From the NCBI GenBank assembly GCA_965661285.1, contig CBFIDD010000001.1, positions 192,001 to 256,000 on the forward strand: a stretch of DNA of 64,000 bases, read 5' to 3'. The translations under genes were made by a program, and so were the position numbers. Positions within the stretch are counted from its first letter, which is position 1. Each line of letters begins with the position of its first letter. A model generated the notes under the pieces. It had not been told where the DNA came from, did not search any database, and was given only the letters and a program-made list of their open reading frames with translations. Shown here piece by piece: positions 15,301-53,509 of the stretch. Source of the stretch: Poseidonia sp. (lineage in GTDB: Archaea > Thermoplasmatota > Poseidoniia > Poseidoniales > Poseidoniaceae).

Positions 15301-15849
15301 AACGAGGACGGTATACCCGACAACGATGCCGACCTCATCGGAAAAACGGTTACGTACACGTTCAAAAAAGACGGCCTCCAATCGGTGAAGGTCATGGCGT
15401 GGGACGAAGACCCCGAACGCCCGGGGACCAAGGTCGTCACCTTTGCCGTGCTCCCCGCCGACCGCACCCCGATTGAGAACCTCGGAGCCGCACTGGTGGG
15501 TGAAGAAGCCAACCCGGTGACACAACTCGGCCTTCTGGTGCTGATGTTGTTACTCGTGGTCCTGTTCGCTCGTCGACGCAACCGTGTCGAGCAGAACCAA
15601 CACGGTTGGGACGAGGTTTCCAACGCCTTGGCTGGCCATATGTTTGACGACCGCGACCAACGCTTGAGCCAAAAACGACCGGAGGGGCCTCCACCTGATT
15701 ATCTGTTCCAGCAGGCCATGCAAGCCGCCCCTCCCAGCGGTGCAGCCACCCAACGGGGACCGCCGCTCCCCGAGACCGGTCTTCCGGAGGGTTGGACCAT
15801 GGAACAATGGGAACACTATGGGCAACAATGGCTTGATTCACAAGGTTGA
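12346..15849 (+). CDS. Large cell-surface protein with CARDB and PKD/Ig-like repeats, TM anchor and GWTMEQW tail
   Basis: Signal-like N-terminus; DASESFDEDG and repeated TDDDG/NxPP motifs; TM helix followed by RRR; C-terminal GPPLPETGLPEGWTMEQWEHYGQQWL. Start at ATG 12346 is supported by a -30 box. Confidence 0.82.
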   Translation: MGEVRYSSTVPVALVLLLLLSMVPQVHHEHLTENHIQHSIAGDPGVSDVPTWRIGDRWIYAGTFDPTVLVTDTGVDATVGEIQGDTTSEVTGITTQNVDNMSVLAYTLRTSANFDKSGVSLEGYSGNVYIQFTQTEYLRVSDLAPIRSELDMYIRFVPSGISFLEQILGDITITTTYSPVNENYDFPLRADERWTTTTTSSSQWSGQSDYITPFPAPETDTNTTTWVVSDVGKPTNDLGQTIDYGGCNESYEMTSFNSDGVSEGYRWYCPEVRNYAWLHTADDIGLVIDFKLKRYDPVGATGVESYTNPGSRADCLEVVTERSITALNTPMQVWVNASSSCFSNPAGVQLELHHEVEGFVTALTTAANGSAWALVDIGDALDSSATQLDYASNGLVAKSGNKVGAATVTLDQYLVGLDVFADEGAAVILRERCIGNVCTITQLNALSGFNVLPGDKLDIEVAFNNRGITTSTATSAQLTMPDGVAITEELPALQTYQAHKMFQLWEVPQNTSIGSLQIEWEADIGRLNTADADFQNNIGTVELFVGRLPTPVAVEPVGLTQETILIDASESFDEDGGNVSCEFYVPFDDGTRTWDFQRIPSPSCMLNYTWIDDGVYPIEITVEDEERDETVMVLNVTVENRDPKIEVRSQRTEAKVEYPITLYAYANDSDSEKVWPGVVDIYWPGANCDEGYYTRVCTTTSTTEGWKTFTAVGTDDDGAVASATFDVKFTNIRPHSLNVQMVGEEGAIAMDTQDTWHVDEDQTVTVKGQAQDSVDDIDGLTHTWWPDDAQPSLVRVFDGRTSEYEMVWLEAGLHKMRLEVTDSEGASSGIEERWVSVQNVAPTIEAIAPVLPVAEGQSISVSGSASDTPSDVDGLVRCWDVDPSMDSDDFGSADDDCDVIGDNLTVSWNRSGVHKLVYHVTDDDGAHTSEVLEVLVLNTPPIVRTAPFSCTAYQACLLDASSTLDALNDVNDLTVAWDIDITDDSNEDGIPDNDADLIGKTVTYTFKKDGLQSVKVMAWDEDPERPGTKVVTFAVLPADRTPIENLGAALVGEEANPVTQLGLLVLMLLLVVLFARRRNRVEQNQHGWDEVSNALAGHMFDDRDQRLSQKRPEGPPPDYLFQQAMQAAPPSGAATQRGPPLPETGLPEGWTMEQWEHYGQQWLDSQG

Positions 15850-15901
15850 ATTCGTAGCAGAAAGGACATCCTCTTTTGTATCAGAACCGCAACCTGCATC
15901 C

Positions 15902-18900
15902 ATGTTGGGACGTGCTTGTCAAGCCGCTTTCCTCGTTGCCCTCTTCCTTCTTTCCACGGGCCTGGCCGTCGTGGAATCGTCCATACTACAGGACCGTTCA
16001 CTTGGACAACAGCACTCGCAAGGCACCAACAGCGTGGTTGATGTCCCAACCTATCGAGTCGGCGATGAATGGGTCTACGAGACCAAGTTCGATGTCGCCC
16101 AGTTGCTTGCACAAGCCAATGTCTCTGCATCGCTCAACACGCTGACCGGGGACACGGTCAACGAGGTCACGGACATCTTCTACGCCACCGACAACAACGG
16201 CGATACCGTTCTTGCCTACGAAGTGGAGATCAGTGGAAGTTTCACGTCGGGCATCAGCGGCGCCACCCTTGAAGGCGTCACCGGGCGACTGAACATTGAT
16301 TACGACGGCATTGACGTGCTTAGAGCCCGAGATTTGGCCACCATCACCAGCGATTTCACCCTCGACGTTCGCTTTCGTCCATTCAACCTCGGGTTCCTCG
16401 AGCAAACCCTCGGCATTGTGACCTTTGATAACACCTACACGCCGGCCAAAGAGCGCCATGACTTCCCGCTTCGAACCGGCGACCAATGGTACATGGAATT
16501 CGAAGCCGAAACGGCCGTCAGCGGGACCTCGGACTATTTTGACCCGAGTGAGTTTGATTCCCAAGAAGATGAAAACAATTCATGGCAAGTCGTCAAAAAC
16601 GAGGCCCCGAGCGAGGATGGGGTCTCCCCTCAATATACGGGATGCGATGATTCGTACAAGATTTCAGAATGGAACGCTACGGGCGTTAATCTGGGATTCA
16701 ACTGGTACTGTCCGGCGGTTCGTGGAAGCGTCTGGAACCGCATCGTTAACCCTGCAGGATTCACCATCGATTGGCTGTTGAAGACCTACACCCCCACCGA
16801 TTCAAACAGCGTCGTCCCTTCATCGTCGCCCGGTGGCCGCAACACCCAGATCCAGGTCAGCACCGCCACCACCGCCACACTTCCAGACGCCGTTGAGCAG
16901 ATTTCCATTGCCTACAGCGTCGCAGGGAATCCGAGTATTCCACTCAAAAACACCAATTTGCAACTGCGATACGAAATTGCAGACACCATCATCAATCCGA
17001 CCACCGACAACAACGGACAAGCACAGGTCTCGCTCAACGTTTCTGACGAGGTGGACGACACACCCGCAAGCGACGACTACACGAGCAACGGTGTCGTGGT
17101 GTACGACCCCGTTGGTGATGTGGTGGGTGCCACCACCGTGGTCCAGGATTTGAGCGTCGTTGGTATTGACCTCATCGCACAGGCCAGCTCTGTTATCGTG
17201 GAGCGCACCCGAAACGGCGACACCACAACGCTGAGCGCCTCCATTGGGTACAATGCTCTCCCGGGCGATGTCCTCAGTTTCTCCTTGCCCGCTCAAAACC
17301 GAGGTGTTCTTTCTGCACCCTCCACCTTTATGGAAATCGAGACACCTGACGGTCCGGTCTCACGAAGTGCCCTTCCGTCCATCGCACCGTACGCAGAAGA
17401 ACGCATCGAAGTGGACTGGGCCGTGCCCGCCGACATGCAAATTGGAACGGCCCAACTGATGTTCACGGTCGACCCGGATGAAAACGTCACGGCTGACGCC
17501 AACCGTAGCAATAACGATGCATCCATCTCCGTCTTTATCGGTCGAGCGCCCAATGCTTCGCTCGTGGTGGATGAAGGAAAATACACGTTCGAAAACATCA
17601 CACTCAACGCCACGCAGAGTTTTGATATTGACGGAGGCGATGTGGATTGTCGCTTCGAAATCGAGTCCAGAGCCGGCCTCATCGACGTCATTGAAGCGCC
17701 CGATTGTTGGACCCAGTGGAATTGGTCCAACAGCGGTTCGTGGAGCGTCAAGGTGCTCGTCATCGACGAAGAGTTGGATACCGATGAGATGGTTGTTGAC
17801 GTCGTGGTGTTGAACCGTGCGCCGAGTTTCAACCTCACCCACCCCGCATCTGTTGAGGTTGAAGCACAAATCTCTGTCCAAGCCATCGACATCGTGGACA
17901 TTGATACATCATCGCCATCCGGACAACAGGTGAGCATCTCATGGCCGGGCCTCGAATGTGACGAAGGACTCACGCAACCCACCTGCACGTTCACGCCAAT
18001 GTTTGAGGGCACGCTCAACATCACGGCCATCGCTACGGACGACGACGGAGAAACCACGACCCTCACCAGCCAAGTGATGGTGCTGAATGTCCCTCCGACC
18101 CTCTCCCCACCCACGCTGTTCAAGGGTGGCGAGGAAGTCTTGCCCGACGAGAACGGCACGTGGCATCTGAACGAGGATGAGGTGGCGCTGCTCAGGGCCA
18201 CAGCGAGCGACACCGCCAACGATGAAGGCACCGTCATTATCGAATGGCACCCCTCTCTGGAGGATGAAAACTGGACCGTTTCCAGCATCGGCGTCAGTTC
18301 CTCAGAAGCCGTTTCATGGAACACTTCGGGCATGCACACCGTTCAGGTTCGAGCGATTGACGCCGACGGTGCGTCCTCCGAAGTTCAACAGGCCAAGGTC
18401 ATGATCCACAACGTACCGCCAAGCGTCACGGGTCTGCCAGGAAACACGCCGGTGTTTGAAAACGACCTGCTCAACTTGACCGTCGTTGCTTCGGACACAG
18501 CCTCCGACATCGCAGACCTCGAGGTGTGTTGGGATTTGGATGCCAGCCTTGACCTCGATGGAGACGGCACGGGCGATAATGACTGTGAGCTCACGGGAAC
18601 GAACATCGAGCCGTCTTGGACCACGCGTGGCGTGCGGATGATCACGGTAACCGTCACCGACGACGACGGTGCAATGGCTCAGCAAACCATGAACGTGAGC
18701 GTGCTGAACCTCCCCCCAACGGCAGTCATATCCGAAATCACCGTACTTGACGACCTCATCGAAGGCGACAATCTCACCCTTTCAGGAGCCGACTCGGTGG
18801 AAACCGAGAGCGATAAGGAAAACCTGGTGTACGAGTGGGACGCCTCCTACCTCGACACGGACCTCGACGGCGAAAAGGTCGGCGATGTGGACTTCACAGG

Positions 18901-19492
18901 ACCAACATGGACGGTCGAAGATTTGCCTGCTGGAACATGGGTGTTCACGCTCACGGTGACCGATGACGACGGTGAATCAACACAGGCGGAGATCACCGTG
19001 CTCGTCGCTGAAGCGCCGCCCAACGGTTTGCTGGAAAGCATCACGAGCAGCATCGGCTCAACCACCACCGCCGTTATCGGGTTGTTGGGCATCATCATCG
19101 TGGGCCTGGTCGTCTTCCTCTTGTTCACCCGCCAACGTGGAGGCGCAGCAGAAGATTTCAGCATGTTTGAGCAAAGCCAATTCGCTGCGGCTCCCAAGGC
19201 TATGGCACCGTTGCCCGCATCCCAACCAGAAACGCCTGTTCAGGCCGCTCAAACCGCAGTGGCGCCTGTTGCTGCGCCCATGGAGACGGCCCAACCGGTC
19301 AACACCGGTCCACCGCTCCCTGCCACAGGCCTTCCCCAAGGGTGGACCATGGAACAGTGGAATTACTACGGAGAACAGTGGTTGGCGGCAAATCAACCCG
19401 CACCGGCCCCTGTTCAACCCATAGTTTCACAAACTCCACCAACCCCTGCCTCCAATGAGTTGCAGTCGTTGCTTGACGACTTGGACTTCTGA
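15902..19492 (+). CDS. Paralogous large CARDB/PKD cell-surface protein with TM anchor and GWTMEQW tail
   Basis: Colinear with the upstream gene (DVPTYRVGDEWVY, DFPLR, WYCPAVR, GYNALPGD, CWDLD); TM helix; GPPLPATGLPQGWTMEQWNYYGEQWL. Confidence 0.82.
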   Translation: MLGRACQAAFLVALFLLSTGLAVVESSILQDRSLGQQHSQGTNSVVDVPTYRVGDEWVYETKFDVAQLLAQANVSASLNTLTGDTVNEVTDIFYATDNNGDTVLAYEVEISGSFTSGISGATLEGVTGRLNIDYDGIDVLRARDLATITSDFTLDVRFRPFNLGFLEQTLGIVTFDNTYTPAKERHDFPLRTGDQWYMEFEAETAVSGTSDYFDPSEFDSQEDENNSWQVVKNEAPSEDGVSPQYTGCDDSYKISEWNATGVNLGFNWYCPAVRGSVWNRIVNPAGFTIDWLLKTYTPTDSNSVVPSSSPGGRNTQIQVSTATTATLPDAVEQISIAYSVAGNPSIPLKNTNLQLRYEIADTIINPTTDNNGQAQVSLNVSDEVDDTPASDDYTSNGVVVYDPVGDVVGATTVVQDLSVVGIDLIAQASSVIVERTRNGDTTTLSASIGYNALPGDVLSFSLPAQNRGVLSAPSTFMEIETPDGPVSRSALPSIAPYAEERIEVDWAVPADMQIGTAQLMFTVDPDENVTADANRSNNDASISVFIGRAPNASLVVDEGKYTFENITLNATQSFDIDGGDVDCRFEIESRAGLIDVIEAPDCWTQWNWSNSGSWSVKVLVIDEELDTDEMVVDVVVLNRAPSFNLTHPASVEVEAQISVQAIDIVDIDTSSPSGQQVSISWPGLECDEGLTQPTCTFTPMFEGTLNITAIATDDDGETTTLTSQVMVLNVPPTLSPPTLFKGGEEVLPDENGTWHLNEDEVALLRATASDTANDEGTVIIEWHPSLEDENWTVSSIGVSSSEAVSWNTSGMHTVQVRAIDADGASSEVQQAKVMIHNVPPSVTGLPGNTPVFENDLLNLTVVASDTASDIADLEVCWDLDASLDLDGDGTGDNDCELTGTNIEPSWTTRGVRMITVTVTDDDGAMAQQTMNVSVLNLPPTAVISEITVLDDLIEGDNLTLSGADSVETESDKENLVYEWDASYLDTDLDGEKVGDVDFTGPTWTVEDLPAGTWVFTLTVTDDDGESTQAEITVLVAEAPPNGLLESITSSIGSTTTAVIGLLGIIIVGLVVFLLFTRQRGGAAEDFSMFEQSQFAAAPKAMAPLPASQPETPVQAAQTAVAPVAAPMETAQPVNTGPPLPATGLPQGWTMEQWNYYGEQWLAANQPAPAPVQPIVSQTPPTPASNELQSLLDDLDF

Positions 19493-19503: not shown

Positions 19504-20073
19504 ATGGGAAGCTTGTGGAATTTTTTCGGTTTGCCCGACCCCGAAGGCACCCCGCCTGCCCAACAGGCACCAGCTCAGGAACCTGCACCTGCGCAGCCCG
19601 TATCATTGACCGGCATCCCCTCTGAGCCGACCCCCTCGTCCGCAGTTGAAGCCAGGCCGATATCGAGCGAAGCGCCAGACCTCAGTGGATTGCGAGCGCC
19701 GCCATTGGGTTGGAACGGACCCGTGACCCCGGATGGAGAAGCCTTTCACGACCTCGGCGTGGAGCGAAAACATCGCCAGCAGTTGCCGAAGAAAGCACTG
19801 CGATACATCGCACCGGATGTGATGAAGCGAATTCCTACCTCTGCCATGCTCGAGCGCGTCCTGCAAGGGGATACGGCCATCGTTGACCTGCGCTCCCTGG
19901 TCCATATGGAAAGCCATCAAATGGCCTGTCGAAGGGAAATCAAACACATGGCCGACCAAGCCCGAGTGAGCGTATTTTCACTGGATGCCGAGGATAAATT
20001 GTTGATGATTCCCGGCCTGAACGTCGTGGTCGATATGGAAAAGCATCAACTTGGATTGACGCCTCTGCTTTGA
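19504..20073 (+). CDS. sepF: Cell division protein SepF-like
   Basis: N-terminal amphipathic MGSLWNFFGL, disordered Pro-rich linker, C-terminal core with SepF pattern (VLQGDTAIVDL...IKHMA...LLMIP). Confidence 0.65.
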   Translation: MGSLWNFFGLPDPEGTPPAQQAPAQEPAPAQPVSLTGIPSEPTPSSAVEARPISSEAPDLSGLRAPPLGWNGPVTPDGEAFHDLGVERKHRQQLPKKALRYIAPDVMKRIPTSAMLERVLQGDTAIVDLRSLVHMESHQMACRREIKHMADQARVSVFSLDAEDKLLMIPGLNVVVDMEKHQLGLTPLL

Positions 20074-23295: not shown

Positions 23296-26200
23296 TCAAA
23301 AGTCAAAGGTGTTGGAGCACACAGGGCAAGTGATACGCTTCAGCATCAAGTCCTTGACGCCAAAACTGGCTTGACAGGACGGGCATGTCGCCTCACGTTT
23401 CAATTCGGGCAGCGGCAAAGCCGGTGCAGGAAGCGGAAGATGGCCGTCGAGTGGAGGCAAGGCACCCGGCACCGGTAGCGCATCCGGCATCGGAACTGCG
23501 TCCGGCATTGGAAGACCCGGGGCAGGGAGGGGAGGCAATCCTTTTTGCAGGATATCCGCCATCTCACGCTGCTGTTTTCGCTTCATTCTGCGTTCAAGTC
23601 GCGCATTCCCCTCGCCTTCCTCGAGCTTCCGCTCAAGTTCAGCCGCAAGGGTTTCATCCTCTTCCTCGACCATCACCGCAAGTTGGCTTTCTTGAACCGT
23701 GAGTACTTCAGCGTCTTCCTCGATGGAAACCAAGGGGCCTTGGTCCTGTTCGGGCGTGATCATCAATTCGACGCCGTCGTCCTCTGCTCCCAATTCCTCA
23801 AGCAATTCCTCCACTTCGGCGTGGGAACGGCGTACCATAACAACCACAACGCCCAAGAAGAGAACGAGGAGCCCCAACGTTCCTGCAAGAATGCGGTATT
23901 TGACCTCGTTTGATTCACCGGGGAGATAATCGAGCAGCGTCTCGAGGAGGCCGGGCACCTCGACCGGCTCGTTTGAACCACCAAACGAGGCCACTTTGCT
24001 GAGACTGAGGGACCCACTGGGTGTCATGGAGCAGATGATGGTGTCTTCTTCCATGACGCCGACGCCGAACAGATAGCCATCGTCAATCATGTTTGACATG
24101 CCGTGCACGGGAGCGCCTTCTCCATCGGCGACGAGACCCATTCGATGCACCGGCCCGTAGATGTTGATCTCGTCGTGGTAGAGGTACACACCGTCATTCC
24201 GCTGAGCAAATCCAAGGGTTGAGACACCGGGTGCGAGGGTGCGCTGGATGTTGTCACCTGACCACAGCGCATCGGTGTTCGCCATGACGACATTCGAGAC
24301 CTTGCCTTGGCCTTCAATCCATGCAGCGAGAAGACGGTCTTCATCGTCATCCACGAGCACCTCCATGGCCGGATACTTGGCGCTGTCACCAACGGAATAC
24401 TGGAAACTCCACGATGAGGAGGTGTAGGAGCCGTGGGTGTACATCAGGCCGACCCGTTCAACGCCGGTGACATCATCTCGGTACTCCTGATAGAGAAGGT
24501 GGAGGTATTCCTCGCCCAAGCCAACCGCCACCGGCTGTGCATCACCTGGACGAATGTCAATATCGGAAAGCACCGTGAGTGGGTTGGTCCATGAATTTCC
24601 CTTGTCGGGGGAAGGGGATGAGATGACGAAGAGCGAGGTGATGTCTTGCCATGAACCGCTCGTGGAAAGGTCGCGGTGGTAGCCCGCCAGCACCATGGTG
24701 CCGTCGTATTGGTCAAAGGTGAACCCGTAATAGGAGCCCTCTGAGAGTTTGAGGGCCGGCATGTGATAGTGTTTGGGCGTGGTTTTCCCTGCCGCAGAAA
24801 TCGAGGTCATGGCAATGTCGGTGAGGATGTAGCCTTCAACGCTGAGCGAACGGCGGGTCCATGCCACCTGCACGAGACCATCGTCTCGCTGATACATCGC
24901 CAACTCACCACCCCAGTTCTCTTCAAGCACCGTACCACCAACCATAGCAAGGGTGGACGTGATGGTGCGGACATGAAGTTCGCCATCGAGGGTGGTGAAG
25001 AGGAGCCCGCCGTTGTTCAGACCAACAAAATCAACGGCAACTTCGCCTGTGGCCAGCGACAGTCCCACTTTGGAACCGGGGCGAACGTCAGCCACCGTGA
25101 TGTTAAACCGGAACTCACTGTGTTCAATCTCCACGCCCGAGCCGCTCAGTACCGCCCGGTAAGAGACGGCGCCGGCTGTATCGTGAACGTCTGCAAACCG
25201 TGCAAAGGCGTAGCCCGACGTGGTGCTTGAACCGGGAACGAGCGCTACGGGCTGATCGTCAAGGCGTTGCCATCCAACCTCTTCGATCCATCGCTCAAGA
25301 CCCAAACTCAGGCTGCTGGCATCGGTTTGTCCGAGGTTATCAACTCGGACGCGAAGGTCGTAAGGTGTTCCTGGCACCGGTACATCAGGTGTGGTTCGGG
25401 CAGCTCCGGGGAGGAAGCGAAGCATCGGTTCAATCGGCCGTTCATCGATGACGAAACTGAAGGTGTAGGCGTTGTTGCTGCGGTCGGGGTCTTCGTACTG
25501 GTTGGTCGGGTCGAGCGAAAGCGTGACGTCATGCGTCCCTGCTTCTGTTGCCCACCAGTACAGGGTCACCTGTACGCTATCGCCTTGTTCAAGCGAGGTC
25601 ACCTTGCCTTCCGAAGGGTAGGTTGTTGAATCGCTTCCCGGACCGTCCAGCGTGAGGTAGACTTCGTCAGCGTCCAGGTCGCCGATGTTGCGCAAGCCAA
25701 ATCGGACCTCGAGGACGGTCCCTGCAACCGCGCTGTTGACCGGCAGACCGCCGTCGTAAACACCAACGGTTCCCGTAAACGCAAAGTTTGGCGCTGCGGG
25801 CAGATTGTCCACTTCGTAGGTCCGTTTCAGAACGTCGCTGGTGACACCCGAAGCGTTGACCAATCGGACACTGACTCGGTGAGAGCCATCACCAACTTGA
25901 CTTGAATCCCACGAAAACGACCAGTCTTGAACAGCATCGCCCTCGGGGTCGAGCGTCTGGCCAACTTGCCAGTCGAGGCTGTCAATCTTGTATTCGATGC
26001 GGTCGTGTTCGATGCCTTCAGCCGTCCCGGAGAACTCGGTCAGGCCGACCAAGGCCTCACCCAACGGTGGTTCAGAAATGGAGACGGTCATTCGAGCGAA
26101 ACGTACGATGCGAACATCGACCACGGAGGCTTCACCGTTTTCGTTGAGCGCTCTGGCGTAAACCAGCGAGTACGATTCGTCGGCGTCGACCCAATCATCG

Positions 26201-28200
26201 TCCACCGTGATGTCAAAATACCAATCTTCGACCGTTCCGTCGGCATTGAGCCAGTTGGTGAGCTCGTTGCTCTCTCCATCGTCGTAGAATTGCTCAAACT
26301 TCACTTGAACCTCGATGTAATCGTTCTCGCTCACATCGGTCGTTCCCTCGACCGACAAGGTGTTGCCTGCGAGGTGGAGCGTTTGGTTCACCGGGGCGGT
26401 CATCGCGACATCTTCACCAAGTCCGTCGCCACCGGGAGGCGGTGTGACCACGATGCCCCCGTTGTCTTCCAACGGCGTGCATGCACGGTCCAAAACGTGG
26501 TCGAGCGCGCAAGAAGCGTCGACCAAACCAAAGCCCCATTTGTCGTTCCAACGGTCGGAAATGTCCGACGCCGAGGCTGAACCACGTGATTCTGAGGAGT
26601 TTCGGAGGATGTTGCGGATGTCCTCAGGAGAAAGGGTGTCATCGGCTTGAAGCAGACTGGCGACGATGCCGGAAACCAACGGGGTGGCCATGCTCGTCCC
26701 GTCTTTTGCATCGTAATCGTTGTCGGCGAGGGGCCGTTCTGGTTGACCGGGGAAGGACGGTCCGGTAGCGGCGGTCGCCGAGGTAATGCCGCTTCCGTAG
26801 GCGGTCACGTCGGGTTTTAATTCGTCCCACTCGTCGTCGTCTCCGTCGTCCAAGCGAGGCCCCCAGTTGGAATAGGATGCCATCACGTCATCGGTTCGGT
26901 TGACGCTGTTGCGGTCGTTGACAGCCCCGATGGAAATGGCGCCATCAGCGCTGGCTGGGGAGGGAACGCGCTTCGACCCGTCGTTGCCCATGGCGACGAT
27001 ACAGACAATGCCTGCGTCTCGAGCATCGTTGACCAAACGCGCTTCGGCACCCGAACCGTTGTCGCCTTCGTCATCGGGGTTGAGCGGACTGCTCAACGAG
27101 CCAAAGGACATCGAACCGACGTCAATGCCCCGGCTCGACTCGTTGTTGCCCCAGTCGGTATCTTTGTTGTTGATCATCCACTGAATCCCATTCAGGGACG
27201 CTTGAGAGTTTGTGCCGCCTGAATCGGTCAGCACCTTAATGTCGACGAGATAGGCGCCCATACCGCTTCCTGTATGAACTCGTTGAGCGCCCCCTGTTCC
27301 CAAGGCCGTTGCCGCAACGTGCGTTCCGTGCCCCTGGCCGTCATCCGGGTCAACCGTCCCGTCCGGGTTCGAAGCGGATGAGGTGGCGTCAAAACCGGCC
27401 ACCCACTTCTGGTCGTTGTAGCTGGTGGCATCGCTGTCGGGTTCGTCATCCACGTCATCAAAGTCGTTGAGGGCTCGGTGTTCGTTGTCCACACCGGTAT
27501 CAAGGACGGCAATGACGACGCCCTCGCCGTAATAACCACGCTCGTAGGTGCTCGCAGAATACACCTCGGAGGGCATCGCTCGAGCGGCTTCGGAAGCCAC
27601 GCCGTTGAACGGAACCATCACGTTTTGCATTTCAATCACGACCACACCCTCGAGTGCGTATATGTCCATGAGGGCGCTGACGGGCACTTTGTCGACGACA
27701 ACCGAGTCGATGGCGTTCATGACCTGGAACCAAGCCCCGCCGGATTCGGAAACCCAACCGTGCATGTTGAGGACCGAACGAAGTTGTTGAACTTCATGGT
27801 GATTCGGTGCCCACGCGTAGTCCACGACGATGGCCACGGTTTTGCGACCGTCGGGACCGACGATGGCGGTTGGCGAAATTGACTCGTGACCTGCGAGCAC
27901 TCGCTGAAGTCGGTCATCCATACCGTTCCAGTCGAGGTCCGGACCGTAGCCAAGCCACCACTGGTCTGGCTCGGAGGAGGCTCGATCACCTCGCTCGATA
28001 AGGCGAGTCGGACGTTCGCAAAGGTCATCGCCGCACATCAACGGCGGCAGGCCATCGACGAGAATTGGCTCGTCGTAGCCCTTTGGTTCGGCGGTCATGG
28101 TGGAGGTTGCAAGGACGCCGCCGCTGACATCTGCGAGGAGCACCAGCAAGGCAAAGAGAACGGCACCCATAGGTAGCGAACGTTGTGACTGACGAAGCAT
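23296..28200 (-). CDS. Membrane-anchored S8 (subtilisin-like) serine protease with Ig/CARDB domains and cytoplasmic Pro-rich, Zn-ribbon tail
   Basis: Catalytic triad VLDTG / GHGTHVA / GTSMATP; CARDB-like repeats; TM helix; tail with CPSC...CPVC. SD-like GAGGTGA upstream of ATG 28200. Confidence 0.88.
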   Translation of the reverse strand: MLRQSQRSLPMGAVLFALLVLLADVSGGVLATSTMTAEPKGYDEPILVDGLPPLMCGDDLCERPTRLIERGDRASSEPDQWWLGYGPDLDWNGMDDRLQRVLAGHESISPTAIVGPDGRKTVAIVVDYAWAPNHHEVQQLRSVLNMHGWVSESGGAWFQVMNAIDSVVVDKVPVSALMDIYALEGVVVIEMQNVMVPFNGVASEAARAMPSEVYSASTYERGYYGEGVVIAVLDTGVDNEHRALNDFDDVDDEPDSDATSYNDQKWVAGFDATSSASNPDGTVDPDDGQGHGTHVAATALGTGGAQRVHTGSGMGAYLVDIKVLTDSGGTNSQASLNGIQWMINNKDTDWGNNESSRGIDVGSMSFGSLSSPLNPDDEGDNGSGAEARLVNDARDAGIVCIVAMGNDGSKRVPSPASADGAISIGAVNDRNSVNRTDDVMASYSNWGPRLDDGDDDEWDELKPDVTAYGSGITSATAATGPSFPGQPERPLADNDYDAKDGTSMATPLVSGIVASLLQADDTLSPEDIRNILRNSSESRGSASASDISDRWNDKWGFGLVDASCALDHVLDRACTPLEDNGGIVVTPPPGGDGLGEDVAMTAPVNQTLHLAGNTLSVEGTTDVSENDYIEVQVKFEQFYDDGESNELTNWLNADGTVEDWYFDITVDDDWVDADESYSLVYARALNENGEASVVDVRIVRFARMTVSISEPPLGEALVGLTEFSGTAEGIEHDRIEYKIDSLDWQVGQTLDPEGDAVQDWSFSWDSSQVGDGSHRVSVRLVNASGVTSDVLKRTYEVDNLPAAPNFAFTGTVGVYDGGLPVNSAVAGTVLEVRFGLRNIGDLDADEVYLTLDGPGSDSTTYPSEGKVTSLEQGDSVQVTLYWWATEAGTHDVTLSLDPTNQYEDPDRSNNAYTFSFVIDERPIEPMLRFLPGAARTTPDVPVPGTPYDLRVRVDNLGQTDASSLSLGLERWIEEVGWQRLDDQPVALVPGSSTTSGYAFARFADVHDTAGAVSYRAVLSGSGVEIEHSEFRFNITVADVRPGSKVGLSLATGEVAVDFVGLNNGGLLFTTLDGELHVRTITSTLAMVGGTVLEENWGGELAMYQRDDGLVQVAWTRRSLSVEGYILTDIAMTSISAAGKTTPKHYHMPALKLSEGSYYGFTFDQYDGTMVLAGYHRDLSTSGSWQDITSLFVISSPSPDKGNSWTNPLTVLSDIDIRPGDAQPVAVGLGEEYLHLLYQEYRDDVTGVERVGLMYTHGSYTSSSWSFQYSVGDSAKYPAMEVLVDDDEDRLLAAWIEGQGKVSNVVMANTDALWSGDNIQRTLAPGVSTLGFAQRNDGVYLYHDEINIYGPVHRMGLVADGEGAPVHGMSNMIDDGYLFGVGVMEEDTIICSMTPSGSLSLSKVASFGGSNEPVEVPGLLETLLDYLPGESNEVKYRILAGTLGLLVLFLGVVVVMVRRSHAEVEELLEELGAEDDGVELMITPEQDQGPLVSIEEDAEVLTVQESQLAVMVEEEDETLAAELERKLEEGEGNARLERRMKRKQQREMADILQKGLPPLPAPGLPMPDAVPMPDALPVPGALPPLDGHLPLPAPALPLPELKREATCPSCQASFGVKDLMLKRITCPVCSNTFDF

Positions 28201-28287
28201 CTCTTCACCTCTCGTTCTGCTGGAAGGCTTGCCCACCTTTGATTCTATCCTCAGATGTATCATCACACGACCCGATGATGAAAGGAA

Positions 28288-40723: not shown

Positions 40724-42187
40724 ATGAGCATCATGACGGCGAGCCTCGTCACCCCCGGAAGCATCATCGCCAAAGAGGGCGACCACGAACACGGCGAAGG
40801 AACCGCCCTCGCTGACGGCAACATCGTCTCCACCGTAATCGGTTATGTCCACGTCGACAACGGCTCCATTTCCGTCTCCGCCTCAAAGCCCATCGTGGAA
40901 CCCGTCGTGGGCGACACCGTGCTTTGCGAAGTGGTGAAGCTCAACGAAAAGCACGGTGAAGCGATGATCCTCGCCGTTGAAGGCAAGCCCGGCTCCATTC
41001 AGCCTCAGCACCTCTACGGCCAGTTCTTCGTGACCGGTCTGGTTGACCGTTTCATGCACCAAACCTCGGACGCCATGCGCCGACGGGATGTTTGCCGTGC
41101 CGTGGTGAAAGAGGTTGAACCGGTCGTCCGCCTCGACTTCCGAGAGCGGGACGACTGCGGTGTGCTCCACGCCATCTGCCCGCCTTGTGGCGACACCCTG
41201 CAAGCCGAACTCGACGGCGATTGGAACGTCATGTGCCCCACCTGTGGCTACCAAGGCTACCGAGCCCTGGCCGACAACTTTGGTGCAGGTTGGGCGGAAC
41301 TCGACCAAGGGGCGAGTGCGCTGAACAACGCCGGCAAGCGCTGGGGCGCTGCTGCCGAAGCCATGTTCGCCAAAGGTCCAGCCGGCCGAGCCACCTTCAT
41401 CGCAGCCGATGTTCGTGAAGACGGACGAGAGCGCACCTACTTCCGCTTCGAAGGCCAAGACGGCGGACGCGGCGGTGGTCGCGGCGGGCGTCAGCGAGCC
41501 GCACCCGGCACCCGACTCTTTGTTGGCGGCCTGCCTCGAGATGTTGGCACCGATGAGCTCAGTGAACTCTTCAAGTCCCACGGGGACATGACCGATTGCG
41601 TCGTGTTGACCGATGATGCCGGCGTCAACCGAGGCTTTGGCTTCGTCACCTACGCCGAGAAATCCATGGCCGAAGCCGCCATCAAGGCCCTTGATGGCCA
41701 CCGCATCAATGGACGCCGCATCGGTGTTCGCGATGCTGATGACGACAAGAAGAAAGGCGGGAGAACGGAACGAAAGGAGCCAGAAGGTCTCAAGCTTTAC
41801 ATCGGAAACTTGCCGTTCTCCGCAACGCAAGACCAACTCAAGGCGATGGTCGCCGCTCACGCCACGGTGAACGAAGTTATTCTCGCCACCGGCCCCGGTG
41901 GGAAGGCCAAGGGCTTTGGCTTCGTCTTCATCGCAGAGAAGGACAAGGGCGAAGATGTCGTCAAGGCGCTCAACAACAGTGAAGTTGAGGGCCGCAAGAT
42001 CAAGGTCGACATCGCCAAATCCAAGGGCGGCAAAGGTGGAAACCGACGCGGTGGCCGTGATGGCAACCGACGCAGCGGCCGTGATGGCGATGGTGGAGGA
42101 AAATCCTCTCGCGAACTCCAAGCGCTCCGAGAAGAAGGCGAAGGCGGGAAGAAGCGCAAGCGACGCCCTCGCCCGAAGAAGGATTGA
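40724..42187 (+). CDS. csl4: Exosome RNA-binding subunit Csl4 fused to two RRM domains
   Basis: VTPG...GEGT N-terminal domain, S1 domain, GVLHAICPPCG...CPTCG Zn ribbon; RNP2/RNP1 pairs LFVGGL/RGFGFVTY and LYIGNL/KGFGFVFI. Confidence 0.85.
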   Translation: MSIMTASLVTPGSIIAKEGDHEHGEGTALADGNIVSTVIGYVHVDNGSISVSASKPIVEPVVGDTVLCEVVKLNEKHGEAMILAVEGKPGSIQPQHLYGQFFVTGLVDRFMHQTSDAMRRRDVCRAVVKEVEPVVRLDFRERDDCGVLHAICPPCGDTLQAELDGDWNVMCPTCGYQGYRALADNFGAGWAELDQGASALNNAGKRWGAAAEAMFAKGPAGRATFIAADVREDGRERTYFRFEGQDGGRGGGRGGRQRAAPGTRLFVGGLPRDVGTDELSELFKSHGDMTDCVVLTDDAGVNRGFGFVTYAEKSMAEAAIKALDGHRINGRRIGVRDADDDKKKGGRTERKEPEGLKLYIGNLPFSATQDQLKAMVAAHATVNEVILATGPGGKAKGFGFVFIAEKDKGEDVVKALNNSEVEGRKIKVDIAKSKGGKGGNRRGGRDGNRRSGRDGDGGGKSSRELQALREEGEGGKKRKRRPRPKKD

Positions 42188-44007: not shown

Positions 44008-47000
44008 ATGAGAACCAGAGTTTTTGCCTTGGTGGCCTTGTTGTTGCTCACGTCACTGTCAGCCGTTCTTGACCAGCGTTCACCGTTCGTCCTTGACCAA
44101 GATAAGGTGTCAATGGAGTCCGGAAACAACAGCACGGGATGTGGGTACAACACCACCTACTTTTCGGTCTATGGCTCCTATGCCCCCTTCCCAGTCTACG
44201 ATGGTGATACCCTCAACACAACCGTTTCAACCAGCTGCAACATGCTGAACCAAACCATGACGGCCTCCTACGGTCTCTCGAACTCGACCACCTACCTTGC
44301 CAGTGGTAACTGGAGTTGGACAGCGACGACTCTCAGTGATAACCTCTCGTTTGAGGTGGCCAACATCCCTGCGGGGACCTATGTTCTCACGGTAGACGTT
44401 TACTACGGTTCGAATTATACCTCCCTGACGAGTTACAACACCACCATCACCGTGTTGACAAGTAACAACAGCGGGGGGGGCACCGGTTGTGGGTATGATG
44501 TGAACAACACCATGCTGATGGCGTACGCTGGGATGTACATGTACGACAACGACCCGTTCACCTCCTGGATCAGCACCTCTTGCGATCTCATCGGCACCCC
44601 GATGCTTATCACGGTGAACATCACGAACACATCGGGCACCATGGCCTCGACCAACTTCACCTACAATGGTTCAACCACCGGCTTCAGCGGCAACTTCAAC
44701 CTGTCCGCTGGCACCTTGAGTGCGGGTAACTACTCCTTCGCAGCCTCGCTATACTATTACCACAACACATCTGGATGGACTCATGTTGAAACGGACAGCA
44801 CCACCATCACGGTGTTGGCGTACACCTCTACCTCCTGCGGATTCCAAGCCTCCTCGGCCAGCGTCTTCGCCTACTCCACTTACGGCGGCTACGATGTCGG
44901 TGAAGACTTCGAAGGTGTCATCGCAACCTACTGTGCCATCTACAACGCCACCATGATGCTCGACTGGACGCTTCATGACGATGATAACAACCAGTCCGTT
45001 GACTCAGGCACCTACAATTGGACAGCACAGCAAACTCAGGAAGTGCACTATGTCAACTCAACTGCGCTCTCGACTGCTACAGTTGGCAACTATTCCTTCC
45101 ACGTTGAGTATTCCTGGTATAACAACTCCTCGATGAGCGTTGAGGTATTGGACACAGACAGCGACAGCTTCTGGGTCTACAACTACACCAGCGGTGGCGG
45201 CAACCAATCCAGCGGTTGTGGCAGCGACCCCGTGCATGCAACAGTCTATGCGTACTCCGACTTCTACGCCTACGACCTCGGCGAGGATTTCGACGGAACC
45301 ATCTCCACGTACTGTGCCATGACCAACGAAAGCATGATGCTTGATTGGGTGCTTTACGACGATGACAACAACCAATCCATCGATTCGGGTTCCTTTAACT
45401 GGACGGCCCAGCTAACCAGTGAGCAGCACAATGTTACGTCCACTTCGCTTGCCACGGCTGCAGAAGGAAACTACTCCTTCACCGTTGAATTTTCCTGGTA
45501 CAACACCTCGTCAATGGCCTGGGAGGTGCTCGATAGCGACACTGACGGCTTCTTTGTGATGAACATGAGCAGCGGTGGCGGCAACCACAGCAGCGGTCCT
45601 TCCTGCTCCGTTTACGCATGGTCCGACTATTACTGGTTCTCCGTTGGAGACAATTTTACCGGTGAAGTGGACTCGTATTGTTCCTTGACCAACGAGACGC
45701 TGATGATCGAGTGGGCCATCCTCAACACCGTCACCAACATGACGGTGGATGCAGGAAACATAAGCTGGACCACCACCATGTTCTCCGAGACGCAAAACGT
45801 CTCCTCCACGGCTCTCGCCAACCAAAACGCTGGCAACTACTCCTTCGCAGTCATGCTCTCGTGGTACAACACCTCGTCAATGGCATGGGAACTTCTTGAC
45901 AGCGACAGTGATCCGTTCTCCATCTACAGCGGGAGCACCGGCGGTGGCGGCAACCACAGCACAGGATGTGGAAGCGACCTTGCCTACACCATGGTGATGG
46001 CCTACGCGTCCTCCTCCTACAACGTCGGCGACACCCTCTATGGCGCCATCGACACCTACTGCCCGGTCAGCGGTGAAGCCTTCATGGTGGACTGGTCGGT
46101 TTATTCGTGGGACGCCGGTTACAACCTGACCCAAAGTACCTTTTTGTGGACGGCCAACAACAGCACCCACTACCACAATGTCGAAGTCACCAACCTGTCA
46201 GAAGGCAACTGGTCCCTCATTGCAACCCTGTACCACTACAACACCTCGAGCATGAGCTATGACGGAATTGACCAATCCATGGCAAACTTCTCGGTGTTCA
46301 ACACAACGCAACCCTCCATCGACGGGGTTGTGGCGGCTAGCATGACAGAATCGAATTACGCCAGCGGCGACACCGTTTCGTGGTTCATCGAAAGTTCCGA
46401 ACTTGTCATGGGCGAGGACTACCACCTCGAGTGGGCCGTCGTTGAAATCATGAGCAACACCACCGTTGCTACTGGCAACGCTTCGTGGACTGCCTACAAC
46501 AACATGAGTGGCGAACAAGGCAACCTTTCCGGTCTTTCCGATGGCATGTACTGCCTCGATGCTTCCCTGTACCAGCAGGTGGACACATACGCCTACTGGG
46601 TGGACTACGACTACGCTTGCTTCAACGTGGGCAGCAGCACCTCCGGTAATCACAGCGACGCCTTCATGAACATCGACTTCGACTACCAGATCACTCAAAT
46701 TGATGACGACACCATCGGTCTCACTTACACCGTCAACAACTCAGGTGACTGGGCGGGCAACTTCTACTACCAAGCCTATCTGAACCCTGGCGATATCATC
46801 GTTGACCACGTTTATGGCAACGTGAGCATCAATGGCATGGGCGTCCACACCGACAGCGTGACCTACGACATCGACGAACTTACGGACGGTGCAGAGGTTT
46901 GCATTGAAATGGCCTTTGTGAACATCAACGGCACCACGGAAGCAGAAGGCAACGAGTGCCTCACCATCGACATCGATAATGGCTCCAATACAGGCAATGA

Positions 47001-47664
47001 AACCGGCAACAACACCGGCGGAAACACCACCATCGACACCGACGGCGACGGCGTGTTCGACCAAGACGACCTCTGCCCCAACACCGCTGCTGGCGTGATG
47101 GTCGACGAGGACGGTTGCGAGGTCATTACGGCCCCAACCGATAATGACGGCGACGGCGTTATGGACGCTGATGATCTCTGTCCCAACACCCCTGCCGGCA
47201 CCACGGTGGACGCCACGGGGTGCGAGGTCGTTGACCCTGTGGACAACAACACGGACAACAACACCGGCAACACCAACGTTGCACCGAGCATCACCAACGT
47301 ATCGATCACCCCCCTCCTGCCGGAGATGGGCGACACCCTGACCTGCGCCTTCACGGCCAGCGACGACAACGGCGATACGCTCGCTGGCACCTATGTGTGG
47401 ACCGTGAACGGTACCATTGTAGCCGAACTTTCCAACACACTAAGCGATGGCTTCGATGTTGGCGACACTGTCACCTGCACGGTCTTGGTCACCGACGGAA
47501 CGAATTCCACCGAAGGAACGGCGACCACCGTCATCTTGCCCGCAGGCACCAACGATATTGTTGATGACCTCGAAGAGGGCGGCCTGCTGCCCTCGGTAGG
47601 CACCATCGGTACGCTCGTGGCCATCGCCTTCGGTGTTGGTCTGACCCGCCGCCAGGACGACTGA
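44008..47664 (+). CDS. Large Ser/Thr/Asn-rich cell-surface glycoprotein with tandem beta-rich repeats, TSP3-like repeats and C-terminal anchor
   Basis: Signal peptide; six Cys-pair modules; DxDGDGV..D.CPNT twice; very many N-x-S/T sequons; C-terminal LPSVG, hydrophobic helix, RR. Confidence 0.82.
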   Translation: MRTRVFALVALLLLTSLSAVLDQRSPFVLDQDKVSMESGNNSTGCGYNTTYFSVYGSYAPFPVYDGDTLNTTVSTSCNMLNQTMTASYGLSNSTTYLASGNWSWTATTLSDNLSFEVANIPAGTYVLTVDVYYGSNYTSLTSYNTTITVLTSNNSGGGTGCGYDVNNTMLMAYAGMYMYDNDPFTSWISTSCDLIGTPMLITVNITNTSGTMASTNFTYNGSTTGFSGNFNLSAGTLSAGNYSFAASLYYYHNTSGWTHVETDSTTITVLAYTSTSCGFQASSASVFAYSTYGGYDVGEDFEGVIATYCAIYNATMMLDWTLHDDDNNQSVDSGTYNWTAQQTQEVHYVNSTALSTATVGNYSFHVEYSWYNNSSMSVEVLDTDSDSFWVYNYTSGGGNQSSGCGSDPVHATVYAYSDFYAYDLGEDFDGTISTYCAMTNESMMLDWVLYDDDNNQSIDSGSFNWTAQLTSEQHNVTSTSLATAAEGNYSFTVEFSWYNTSSMAWEVLDSDTDGFFVMNMSSGGGNHSSGPSCSVYAWSDYYWFSVGDNFTGEVDSYCSLTNETLMIEWAILNTVTNMTVDAGNISWTTTMFSETQNVSSTALANQNAGNYSFAVMLSWYNTSSMAWELLDSDSDPFSIYSGSTGGGGNHSTGCGSDLAYTMVMAYASSSYNVGDTLYGAIDTYCPVSGEAFMVDWSVYSWDAGYNLTQSTFLWTANNSTHYHNVEVTNLSEGNWSLIATLYHYNTSSMSYDGIDQSMANFSVFNTTQPSIDGVVAASMTESNYASGDTVSWFIESSELVMGEDYHLEWAVVEIMSNTTVATGNASWTAYNNMSGEQGNLSGLSDGMYCLDASLYQQVDTYAYWVDYDYACFNVGSSTSGNHSDAFMNIDFDYQITQIDDDTIGLTYTVNNSGDWAGNFYYQAYLNPGDIIVDHVYGNVSINGMGVHTDSVTYDIDELTDGAEVCIEMAFVNINGTTEAEGNECLTIDIDNGSNTGNETGNNTGGNTTIDTDGDGVFDQDDLCPNTAAGVMVDEDGCEVITAPTDNDGDGVMDADDLCPNTPAGTTVDATGCEVVDPVDNNTDNNTGNTNVAPSITNVSITPLLPEMGDTLTCAFTASDDNGDTLAGTYVWTVNGTIVAELSNTLSDGFDVGDTVTCTVLVTDGTNSTEGTATTVILPAGTNDIVDDLEEGGLLPSVGTIGTLVAIAFGVGLTRRQDD

Positions 47665-50754: not shown

Positions 50755-50770
50755 ACAGGGTGCTCAGGCA

Positions 50771-53509
50771 TCAACGGTTGTTGAGGTAGTCTTCACCGTA
50801 CCACGCCCACTGCTCCATCGTCCAGCCGGGCGGCAGGCCTTCGGGCGGAAGCGGCGGTCCGGTCTGTGTTGGCGGCGCTACAGCGGGAAGCCCCGGTACC
50901 GCTGGAAGTGCAGGAAGGGTTGGCAGAACCTCGCTCGGTCCACGTCGACGACCCACCATGAACAACAACAGGACGACGACCACGATGAGCGGCACGCCCA
51001 CGGTCAACAGGTTGCCCGAAAGCAGACCCGCCTCGTGCTTGGTGGCGTCTTCAGGGTAGGCGTCAGCGGAGTTCGACCAGCCATCGCTGTCCGTGTCGGG
51101 GCAGCCAAGGGCGTCCTCGGTCGACGTACCGTAGACCTCGGGACAATCATCGGAGAGGGCCGTGCCTTGCTCGTCGGCGTAGCCGTCATCATCGGTATCG
51201 GACCACAAAAGCACGTCATCGGGGAAGGCATCGAAAGCGTCGGCCCAACCGTCTCCGTCGCCGTCAAGGCATCCGAATGCGCCCAAGGTCGACGTTCCCG
51301 CAACATCGGGGCAAGCGTCGGGCTGAACGCCCTCGGCGTTGTCGCCATAACCGTCGCCGTCGGTGTCGAGATGCTGGGTTGGCTCCTCGGGCAGGCCGTC
51401 GTTCGCATCGGACCAGCCGTCGCCATCACCGTCCACACAACCGAAGCGGTCTTGCGTTGAGGTCCCCGCTGTCTGAGGACAAGCATCGGGCTGGAAGCCG
51501 GCGTCGTTATCGCCGTAGCCGTCGCTGTCCGCATCGAGATGCTGGGAGGCGACGGTCGGGAAGGCGTCGTTCGCGTTGGACCAACCGTCGCTGTCGGTGT
51601 CGGCGCAGCCGAACCGGTCGTAGGTGGAGGTCCCCGGACGCCCCGGACAGGCGTCGCCTTGGAAGCCGTCGGGGTTGTCCCCGTAGCCGTCTTCGTCCAC
51701 GTCGGCCCACTGGGTGCCGTCGACCGGAAAGGCGTCGATGTTGTCGCTGTAGCCGTCGTCGTCGCCGTCAGCACATCCAAGCACACCGCCCATGGAACTC
51801 GTACCCGCCACTTGCGGGCAGTTGTCTTCGGCGTCCTGAACACCGTCGTTATCGTCGTCGAGGTCTTCGTTCGAATCTTCACACCCGTCTCGGTCAGCAT
51901 CGTTGCTGTTGGAGGAGGTGAAGCCGAGGGTGCTGTTCGGACAGAGGTCTTCCTCCACGGACGAAACGGTGCAGGCCCACGCAACATCGGTCGTGGTGCC
52001 GTCGCAGATGCCGTCGTTGTCGTCGTCGAGGTCTTCACCTGCGTCCTGGCATCCGTCGCCGTCGTAATCCGTCGCAGTGGACGAGGTCCAGCCGAGTTGC
52101 CCTGCAGCGCAGGCGTCGGCGAAGTCAAACACGCCGTCGTTATCGTCGTCGTTGTCCTCAACGCTGTCTCGACAACCGTCGCCGTCGTGGTCGGTCGCAA
52201 CGCTGGAGGTCCAGCCGAGTTCACCTCGGTCGCAGGTGTCATTAACATCAAGCACGCCGTCGTTGTCGTCGTCATCGTCGCACGCATCTCCCAGTCCATC
52301 CCCGTCGGTGTTGAGCTGGGAAGCGTTGGGCACAAACGGGCAATTGTCGGCCTCATCGCCCACGCCATCGCCGTCCTCATCGGTGAACGGGTCGATGCGA
52401 ACGACCTCGTCCTGACCGTTATCGACGTAGTAGAGATGGCCGTTGGGTCCGAATTCGAGCCCCATGATGGCGGTGGCCGACGTTTGGATTTCGTCAGCGT
52501 AGGTGCCGCCTTTGCCGTCGGAAGGCAAGTCGTAGGCGACGATGTTGCCGTTGCTGTACTCCGAAACAAAGAGGTGGCCGTCGTGGAGGGCGATGCCGGT
52601 TGGACGGTCAAGACCGGTGGCGAGCACACCCCATTCGATGCCGTTGAATCGTTTGTACTCGGCGAGCGGTTCAAGCCGTGAAGGGTCGTTCATGAGGTCG
52701 GTGGAGGTGTAGGTGGCATCGTCGGTGTTGACCCATAGCACGCGGTTCGCGGCGGGGTCGGCAATGTAGAGAATCCCCGTATCGTGGTCGAGTTCCATGT
52801 GGCCGGGGACACCGAGCACGTGGCCGAGTTGGATGTCGGAGTAGCGGTGAACGATGGCGTCGGAGTGGTCGTCGTAGCCCGTGTCGTGGTCTTCAGCGAA
52901 GTCGTAGCGAACCAGTTCACCGTAGTGGCCGTCGTTGTACCAGTACACGTTATCGTAGTCGTGAGCGATGCCCGTGCCGTAAGGGGATTCGTGGTTCATG
53001 TCGATGTGGCTGCCCAGCAAGTTGTTGTTTTGGTTTTCAACGGAGTAGTGGTCAAGTGAGGACGGCCAGAGCGTGGGCCCCATGAAGTTGTTCGCTTCTG
53101 CCTGACCGCAGTAGGTGTTGGCCGTTTCTTGGGCGGAGCCCCACTGCCAGTCAAACTCGGGGTGGTAGGCACCAAAGGCGATGGCGCTGACCTCCTCAAG
53201 GAAGTGGTTGCTGTAGGCATCCTCGCGGTTCTCCGACGTTTGGTTCTCAAGGCCGGTGTTGTGCACAATCGTGATGCTGTCCGTGGCCCGGTTGGCGACC
53301 CACAACTCGCCCGTGCGGCCGGGATGGAATTCCAAATCCCGAGGGTCGTCAAGGTCGTCGAGGTAATCGGCGATGACCGTCTCGACAAATCCGTCGCCAA
53401 ACGCATCCACCGTCTCCGTGTCCTCGGCTTGGGCGGTGTAAATTGGGACAGAAGGGAGAGCGAAGAGGAGAAGGAAGACAAGGGAGAAGGCAAGTTTTCG
53501 CTCCATCAT
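50771..53509 (-). CDS. Cell-surface protein: beta-propeller-like domain, many thrombospondin type 3 repeats, TM anchor and GWTMEQW tail
   Basis: Signal peptide; PRDLEFHP/PTGIAL/GLEFGP NHL-like blades; repeated DxDxDG and DAFP/DACP units; TM helix followed by RRR; GPPLPPEGLPPGWTMEQWAWYGEDYL. Confidence 0.85.
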   Translation of the reverse strand: MMERKLAFSLVFLLLFALPSVPIYTAQAEDTETVDAFGDGFVETVIADYLDDLDDPRDLEFHPGRTGELWVANRATDSITIVHNTGLENQTSENREDAYSNHFLEEVSAIAFGAYHPEFDWQWGSAQETANTYCGQAEANNFMGPTLWPSSLDHYSVENQNNNLLGSHIDMNHESPYGTGIAHDYDNVYWYNDGHYGELVRYDFAEDHDTGYDDHSDAIVHRYSDIQLGHVLGVPGHMELDHDTGILYIADPAANRVLWVNTDDATYTSTDLMNDPSRLEPLAEYKRFNGIEWGVLATGLDRPTGIALHDGHLFVSEYSNGNIVAYDLPSDGKGGTYADEIQTSATAIMGLEFGPNGHLYYVDNGQDEVVRIDPFTDEDGDGVGDEADNCPFVPNASQLNTDGDGLGDACDDDDDNDGVLDVNDTCDRGELGWTSSVATDHDGDGCRDSVEDNDDDNDGVFDFADACAAGQLGWTSSTATDYDGDGCQDAGEDLDDDNDGICDGTTTDVAWACTVSSVEEDLCPNSTLGFTSSNSNDADRDGCEDSNEDLDDDNDGVQDAEDNCPQVAGTSSMGGVLGCADGDDDGYSDNIDAFPVDGTQWADVDEDGYGDNPDGFQGDACPGRPGTSTYDRFGCADTDSDGWSNANDAFPTVASQHLDADSDGYGDNDAGFQPDACPQTAGTSTQDRFGCVDGDGDGWSDANDGLPEEPTQHLDTDGDGYGDNAEGVQPDACPDVAGTSTLGAFGCLDGDGDGWADAFDAFPDDVLLWSDTDDDGYADEQGTALSDDCPEVYGTSTEDALGCPDTDSDGWSNSADAYPEDATKHEAGLLSGNLLTVGVPLIVVVVLLLFMVGRRRGPSEVLPTLPALPAVPGLPAVAPPTQTGPPLPPEGLPPGWTMEQWAWYGEDYLNNR
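51040..52390 (-). repeat. Thrombospondin type 3-like Ca-binding coding repeats
   Basis: Recurring D-x-D-x-D-G units with CP and GC dipeptides (approximate boundaries). Confidence 0.8.

Follow-up and report, generated by a model that had tools for sequence, protein, structure and literature searches.

A conserved 26-residue module at the predicted cytoplasmic ends of large surface proteins in the archaeal order Poseidoniales

Carriers of the module in the window and in the genome

The stretch of DNA analysed here, referred to as the window, comprises 64,000 nucleotides of Poseidonia sp. (assembly GCA_965661285.1, contig CBFIDD010000001.1, positions 192,001 to 256,000 of the forward strand) and encodes three large putative surface proteins, carriers 1 to 3, which share a short tail module, GPPLPxxGLPxGWTMEQWxxYGxx[WY]L. 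An earlier interpretation made from the letters alone (the sequence-only reading) had placed three copies of it at 15757-15834 (+), 19307-19384 (+) and 50783-50860 (-), where they translate exactly; their alignment gives 18 identical positions out of 26, rather than the 16 stated there. A stop codon follows 4 residues behind copy 1, which is also covered by the profile hidden Markov model (HMM) and the AlphaFold model, and 3 residues behind copy 3. Carrier 1 (12316-15849 (+)), a type I membrane protein with a PKD/Ig-like ectodomain, probably starts at a Met slightly inside the open reading frame (ORF), and its transmembrane (TM) helix at 15514-15570 (+) is followed by RRRNR. Carrier 2 (15740-19492 (+); TM helix at 19070-19126 (+)), whose ORF overlaps that of carrier 1 and whose start is probably near 15902, is a tandem paralogue of carrier 1 (449 bits, 33% identity, 89% coverage) with a PKD/CARDB ectodomain. 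Carrier 3 (50771-53509 (-)) combines a ScyD/ScyE-like region, probably a propeller, with thrombospondin-3 repeats and one TM helix (50954-51010 (-)), followed by GRRR. The TM coordinates were converted from a hydropathy scan. Pfam searches of the ectodomains returned PKD for carrier 1, PKD and a sub-threshold CARDB match for carrier 2, and TSP_3 for carrier 3, the ScyD/ScyE resemblance of which is below the cut-off. As had been described, each copy is preceded by a hydrophobic segment at the N-terminus, a long ectodomain, one TM helix trailed by basic residues, and a low-complexity linker; the designation of the carriers as unrelated surface proteins holds for the ectodomain of carrier 3, but not for the paralogous carriers 1 and 2.

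An HMM built from the three window copies detected six further copies in the 1.98-Mb genome (28,154 six-frame ORFs) at 35-59 bits, resulting in a total of nine; the next match scored 11 bits, and reversed and locally shuffled ORFs reached at most 10.6 and 9.5 bits, respectively. These data confirm that the module is a real feature, beyond chance. A tandem degenerate GW[S]xE repeat (G000:C1:526306-531621) scored 11-12 bits; a score of 36 bits for the same repeat was discounted as circular, because the repeat was in the training set. The PA14/LamG surface protein concerned (L007:10050-10322 (+), same locus) ends in two tandem degenerate P-x-G-W-S-x-E units. The nine carriers are encoded by frames of 835-1856 codons, each with an N-terminal hydrophobic segment, a long ectodomain and a single TM helix, and their tails of 60-153 residues carry the module at or near the C-terminus.

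Sequence conservation and inheritance

Ten columns of the module are invariant in 151 sequences chosen by score, two of which are the window copies, and 13 columns are invariant in 29 tails that were picked by synteny with a sepF-like gene and not by the motif. Column identity is 0.83 in the module and 0.51 in the spacer behind it; it is 0.78 in a second conserved element of the tail, the acidic-hydrophobic C-terminal tip LLDDLDF of carrier 2 (19469-19489 (+)). Four-fold degenerate sites are identical between pairs of window copies in only 4/13, 4/12 and 2/12 cases. Since these sites are saturated, the protein sequence of the module is under selection.

The nine carriers of the genome represent eight ectodomain families, including a subtilase, CARDB/NPCBM proteins and a WD40-like propeller; a ninth family bears the module in other genomes, not in this one. 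Carrier 3 is similar to one other carrier over a short region only (27% coverage), and no other carrier pair matched at E ≤ 1e-3 among 11 proteins of this genome. All 40 carriers taken from ten other genomes could be assigned to the nine families; in this sample, genome G295 contributes one of its seven matches and G241 one of its 11. The module is thus portable, as the sequence-only reading had supposed, residing on nine old ectodomain families rather than on recent paralogues of one. Module identity averages 0.72 within the same family across genomes, 0.675 between different families of one genome, and 0.657 otherwise. That two of the three window carriers are paralogous would fit a function-less relic of recent duplication or gene conversion; however, the saturated synonymous sites, the excess of own-family likeness across genomes (0.72 versus 0.66-0.68, p 0.0002) and the order-wide occurrence described below leave this explanation a next to negligible probability. 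The identities and the saturated four-fold sites show that the module spread early and was inherited vertically thereafter, and that it does not stem from recent paralogy.

Taxonomic distribution

All 31 relatives, drawn from three families, have the module. In a draw across the phylum it was found in 95 of 95 genomes of the order Poseidoniales and in none of 306 other genomes, among them ten of the sister family in the class, so that the count by taxon proposed by the sequence-only reading yields an order-wide and order-restricted distribution. Copy numbers range from 5 to 11 per genome in the family of the window and from 1 to 8 in a second family, f3. Among representative proteins, 639 matched the module at E ≤ 0.001.

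A pattern scan of named genomes gave at least 120 matches; among the 80 titles listed, 76 are archaeal and four belong to bacterial metagenome-assembled genomes. The archaeal titles among the matches listed refer to Poseidoniales, Poseidonia, Thalassarchaeum or carry unspecific labels. Three of the four bacterial matches fit specific carrier families, two of them with the same downstream gene as here, and the fourth has the same tail layout and no clear family; these matches are likely due to mis-binning. Searches with two carrier ectodomains in a few sister-order genomes gave no full-length match (0 of 2; one partial hit in 5). Of 27 pattern matches in viral contigs, none was confirmed.

Predicted fold and comparison with known families

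No Pfam or NCBIfam family matched more than 3 of 82 module copies (best E 0.016), in agreement with the presumption that no model of the module exists. AlphaFold, supplied with 82 sequences, predicts a coil (positions 1-18 of the model) followed by a helix (19-33) and no strands, with a pLDDT of 85 and a pTM of 0.50; the predicted fold accordingly comprises a proline-rich arm, a turn and a helix, for which T-M-E-Q presumably forms a capping box. Fold searches with the module model were uninformative at such a length, Foldseek returning a single match at E 8.7 and VIA-align none at Z ≥ 2, and the ESM Atlas yielded only unnamed clusters at 0.86-0.91, with no usable named match.

The sequence-only reading had noted a partial resemblance to WW domains (PF00397). 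The module shares with these the LPxGW opening, small size and richness in Trp, and in the PDB the sequences closest to it are those of Salvador WW domains, with E values of 0.35-0.63 that are not significant, and essentially via this opening. The likeness does not extend to the rest: WW domains form a three-stranded antiparallel beta sheet, whereas a helix is predicted for the module, and PF00397 matched none of the 82 copies at E ≤ 1 and nothing in the genome at E ≤ 0.1. Pancreatic polypeptide and NPY, the PP-fold miniproteins, are secreted animal hormones in which a proline-rich arm is connected by a turn to an amphipathic aromatic helix. The order of elements in the module recalls this fold, which we take to be at most an analogy: no sequence similarity was found; secondary structure and helix face are compatible, contacts between arm and helix are not visible in the model, and fold searches on 34 residues are insensitive.

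Residues W18, Y21, G22 and W/Y25 share one face of the helix, with a mean hydrophobic moment of 0.37. An aromatic face of this kind might insert into the inner leaflet as a second membrane anchor that needs no protein partner. We consider this very improbable, given that the net charge of the module averages -2.5 and is positive in none of the 82 copies, that the invariant Pro, Gly and Gln positions go beyond what lipid insertion needs, and that the carriers already possess a TM helix.

Searches with motif strings and for surface motifs of Marine Group II (MGII) found no relevant publication, supplements and most subscription papers lying outside their reach. In PMC6461757, thrombospondin and flotillin genes are named as adhesion traits, the relevant passages being silent on tails.

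Membrane side and relation to sorting signals

The module is located at the end of a single-pass tail in all nine carriers of this genome, and the TM helix precedes it in all 40 carriers from the ten other genomes, which bears out the expectation that it always lies C-terminal to a single TM helix. In a set of 152 proteins (150 database matches and two window translations), a TM helix was found upstream of the module in 74, while 77 short fragments and one longer fragment lack a TM helix; in none of the 152 is it located downstream.

Counted over 46 carriers of nine genomes, the N-glycosylation sequon N-x-S/T occurs 391 times in the ectodomains (43,168 residues) and 10 times in the tails (5,099 residues), equivalent to 9.1 per 1000 residues before and 2.0 after the TM helix. 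Lys and Arg average 0.4 before the helix versus 2.7 behind it, and are more frequent behind it in 42 of the 46. One orthologous carrier additionally contains a SAP domain between TM helix and module (52.7 bits; L043:6850-7440 (+)); SAP is a nucleic-acid-binding domain, situated in this tail just before the module. Because sequon asymmetry, charge asymmetry and the SAP domain agree, a cytoplasmic location of the module, which the sequence-only reading had predicted, is strongly suggested.

Occurrence on up to 11 otherwise unrelated carriers per genome is reminiscent of LPXTG, PEP-CTERM, PGF-CTERM/archaeosortase A and GlyGly-CTERM/rhombosortase, likewise short, lineage-restricted regions common to many unrelated secreted proteins of a genome, and a rhomboid gene is present in the window. 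A processing signal of the sortase type would, however, consist of a motif on the outer side of the cell, a TM helix and a C-terminal basic cluster, soon after which the protein ends, as set out in passages of PMC3237569. The module follows the TM helix in 46 of 46 carriers, separated from it by a linker of 19-161 residues, and thus lies distally in a cytoplasmic tail, and no processing enzyme was found. No member of the exosortase/archaeosortase family PF09721 was found in the genome, the control for this search being weak (positive in only 1 of 14 genomes). The idea of a sorting signal, considered in the sequence-only reading, is weakened by the position of the motif behind the TM helix, and a sortase-type signal appears remote. 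Another comparison is offered by SHOCT, a short, mostly C-terminal domain that occurs in many architectures and for which oligomerisation has been proposed; according to PMC3581485, it is widespread in bacteria, and the first experiments of its authors did not support oligomerisation. No Pfam match to SHOCT occurred among the 82 copies at E ≤ 1. The module behaves as other short, portable domains of tails do, yet it belongs to none of those tested; it is an uncatalogued, order-specific cytoplasmic cap, as far as its side of the membrane can be predicted. An existing family, an extracellular position or restriction to recent paralogues had been named beforehand as outcomes that would contradict the sequence-only reading; what was found is no family match, a predicted cytoplasmic topology and nine old families.

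Loss and exchange of the module

In each of the 45 genomes examined, a member of the carrier-1/2 family is immediately followed by a sepF-like gene. The carrier next to this gene bears the module in every one of the 29 genomes from the window's family; outside that family, this holds for just 3 of 15 assessable loci, one more locus being broken by Ns. One thermosome-adjacent orthologue stops just short of the module position and retains its gene position. Because it has been lost from sepF-adjacent family members and from single orthologues, the module is dispensable for the individual carrier.

It can also be replaced. The 1856-aa carrier bears the module in 10 of 10 orthologues within the family of the window, while in family f3 all five orthologues, 43-46% identical and in an unchanged gene order, have a different cap, consisting of a helical [FW/Y][TS]DxQLxxxGW[ST]xxQ unit and an EF-hand-like domain (L272:2942-3301, L273, L277, L278 and L280, from five genomes); at 11 loci the carrier gene is absent. 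Since orthologous carriers lose or exchange it, the module is a swappable part. Of the 56 type I tails defined heuristically in this genome, nine carry it. Among the tails listed, the remaining ones have Trp-rich hairpin-like units, GW[TS]xE helices of other kinds, zinc ribbons or acidic tips at their ends. In the window, an S8 peptidase/CARDB type I protein (23296-28266 (-)) has 13 LP-type repeats in its tail, the end of which is formed not by the module but by a weakly matched MJ0042-like zinc ribbon (E 0.2); the rhomboid gene (28288-29376) is located directly upstream. The lonB-adjacent and thermosome-adjacent carrier families also share another short motif of the tail, ANSMYGG and then E[IL]F (L002:5035-5300 (-) and orthologues); it is found in 15 of the 152 proteins and is retained where the module is lost.

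Genomic neighbours and candidate partners

The genome contains neither soluble proteins carrying the module nor WW domains. The divergent sepF-like gene directly behind carrier 2 (19504-20073 (+), 189 aa) has matches in 60 of 61 genomes and is single-copy in nearly all. Its product is weakly SepF-like: the top match in the PDB is archaeal SepF (3zie, E 0.016 over 79 positions; 3zig, E 0.11), and Pfam SepF is recognised in 6 of 32 members (best E 0.029); a PF04472 search of the genome was negative. Because the linkage persists where the module is lost, the sepF-like gene belongs with the carrier family and not with the module, and was rejected as a module partner inferred from linkage. The carrier-2 tip LLDDLD[FL] resembles the SepF-binding segments of FtsZ (LDDFI and DLDV, according to passages of PMC8178401), a resemblance only; tip and sepF-like gene together could possibly link a giant surface protein to the division site. 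A complex prediction with two SepF-like cores and two carrier-2 tails (module plus acidic tip) scored 0.00 and counts neither way. One RNA run (share 0.07) yielded five short contigs, all inside carrier 2, which are not evidence.

A soluble helical protein of about 145 aa (L006:4599-5036 (-); G000:C6:36698-37216) is encoded next to the 1856-aa carrier, or behind the upstream giant gene where that carrier is absent. It is single-copy in 41 of 41 genomes of the order and absent from 40 others of the class, a range identical to that of the module. It has 19 invariant columns in 26 sequences and a confident helical model (pLDDT 90), belongs to no known family and gave no fold match above Z 6.5. 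The genome also has two actin/MreB-family genes that are 47% identical (L057, G000:C4:178415-179422; L056, G000:C2:139863-140912), the former followed by a gene for a probable coiled-coil protein of 461 aa. Genes of this family occur in 24 of 24 genomes of the window's family and 4 of 16 of f3; an actin/MreB-like obligate partner was rejected, because 12 of the 16 f3 genomes, in which the query found none, keep 1-4 modules. A PqqD-like neighbour was likewise set aside, as 34 of 40 genomes outside the order also have it and 4 of 40 within the order lack it; Band_7/SPFH proteins occur inside and outside the order and do not discriminate.

Other conserved neighbours of carriers are lonB, thermosome, adenylate kinase, GAPDH, TBP and ParA-family genes. 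At the loci seen, lonB and a thermosome gene, respectively, come immediately after the two most persistent carrier families and in the same orientation, and the sole copy of one reduced genome is on the family that precedes lonB elsewhere. The module might hence be a biogenesis or turnover tag, read by quality-control machinery such as membrane LonB or the thermosome that folds, holds or removes very large proteins. As housekeeping neighbours are the rule, other carriers adjoining TBP, adenylate kinase/GAPDH or ParA-family genes, and as the thermosome-adjacent orthologue without module keeps its position, we regard such a tag as improbable. To our knowledge, moreover, degrons seldom retain ten invariant residues.

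Other genes of the window

A Thr/Ser/Asn-rich secreted protein of 1218 aa without Pfam match (44008-47664 (+)) has a tripartite-looking tail (short motif, TM helix, RRQDD), despite the fact that no archaeosortase was found in the genome. One long frame (40631-42187 (+)) matches the N-terminal region of Rrp4 and two stretches of RNA recognition motifs, and possibly represents two genes in one frame. Near the window end, 61148-63280 (+) codes for a 710-aa protein without Pfam match, the composition of which looks different; it possibly belongs to an island.

Putative function and implications

The combination of a conserved, non-catalytic acidic unit, a flexible leash, reuse on unrelated ectodomains and exchangeability is best explained by binding. 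The module would then be a folded cytoplasmic domain of about 26 residues, in which the arm PPLPxxGLP is followed by a GW turn and then by an N-capped helix, T-M-E-Q-W-x-x-Y-G-x-x-W/Y-L, and the arm may pack on the W18/Y21/G22/W25 face. Tethered by a flexible acidic/Pro-rich linker to the inner end of surface proteins that span the membrane once, it may bind one conserved cytoplasmic or membrane-associated partner, and so position or cluster a subset of large surface proteins (subtilase, adhesin-like PKD/CARDB, propeller, TSP3). The favoured reading, to which we give an even chance, is that the module is a docking handle for such a putative intracellular partner. The proposal of the sequence-only reading that it docks on a common partner, or on other copies of itself, fits the evidence, but no partner was identified. 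Surviving candidates are the order-specific helical protein of about 145 aa, a flotillin-length SPFH protein, LonB and other tail caps.

Several observations weigh against a docking handle. The module is lost at 12 of 15 sepF-adjacent loci outside the window's family and in single orthologues elsewhere, its copy number falls to 1 in some genomes, and no partner emerged among the candidates examined. Phylogenetic profiling, recommended by the sequence-only reading, cannot isolate one because the module is present in every genome of the order, a pattern common to any order-specific gene. The invariant residues on one helix face could also have a purely structural role, and in a model with a pTM of only 0.50 contacts are not visible.

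Modules may alternatively bind each other, for instance by swapping the proline arm onto the aromatic face of a neighbour, and thereby cluster different surface proteins with no need for a further partner. A ligand-like arm and an aromatic face are combined within one unit, some linkers repeat GLPP/LP units resembling the arm, and modules of different families are slightly more alike within than between genomes (0.675 versus 0.657, permutation p 0.03). This effect is small, though, and kin are not independent; single-copy genomes keep the module conserved, tandem full copies were not seen, and LP repeats also occur on a module-less tail. Self-association is therefore judged unlikely, although less so than a turnover tag.

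A docking handle could form part of a wider tail code, in which interchangeable caps (this module, Trp-rich hairpins, GW[ST]xxQ helical units, zinc ribbons, EF-hand-like units and acidic tips) would connect dozens of very large enzymes and adhesins of the surface with scaffolds inside the cell, comparable to the tails of animal adhesion receptors. The module would be the address of one surface assembly, which the SepF-linked carrier would attach to the division site. We put this idea forward as tentative, its chances being well below even.

The module is a sharp marker for the order and merits a Pfam/NCBIfam model. With its 26 residues it is also a ready bait for peptide screens against the proteome in silico or against environmental lysate, which need no culture. 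Marine Group II archaea are described in PMC6461757 as the most abundant planktonic archaea of surface waters, without cultured representatives. A conserved inner handle, for which we found no description in this group, would imply that the surface of these cells is organised from inside.

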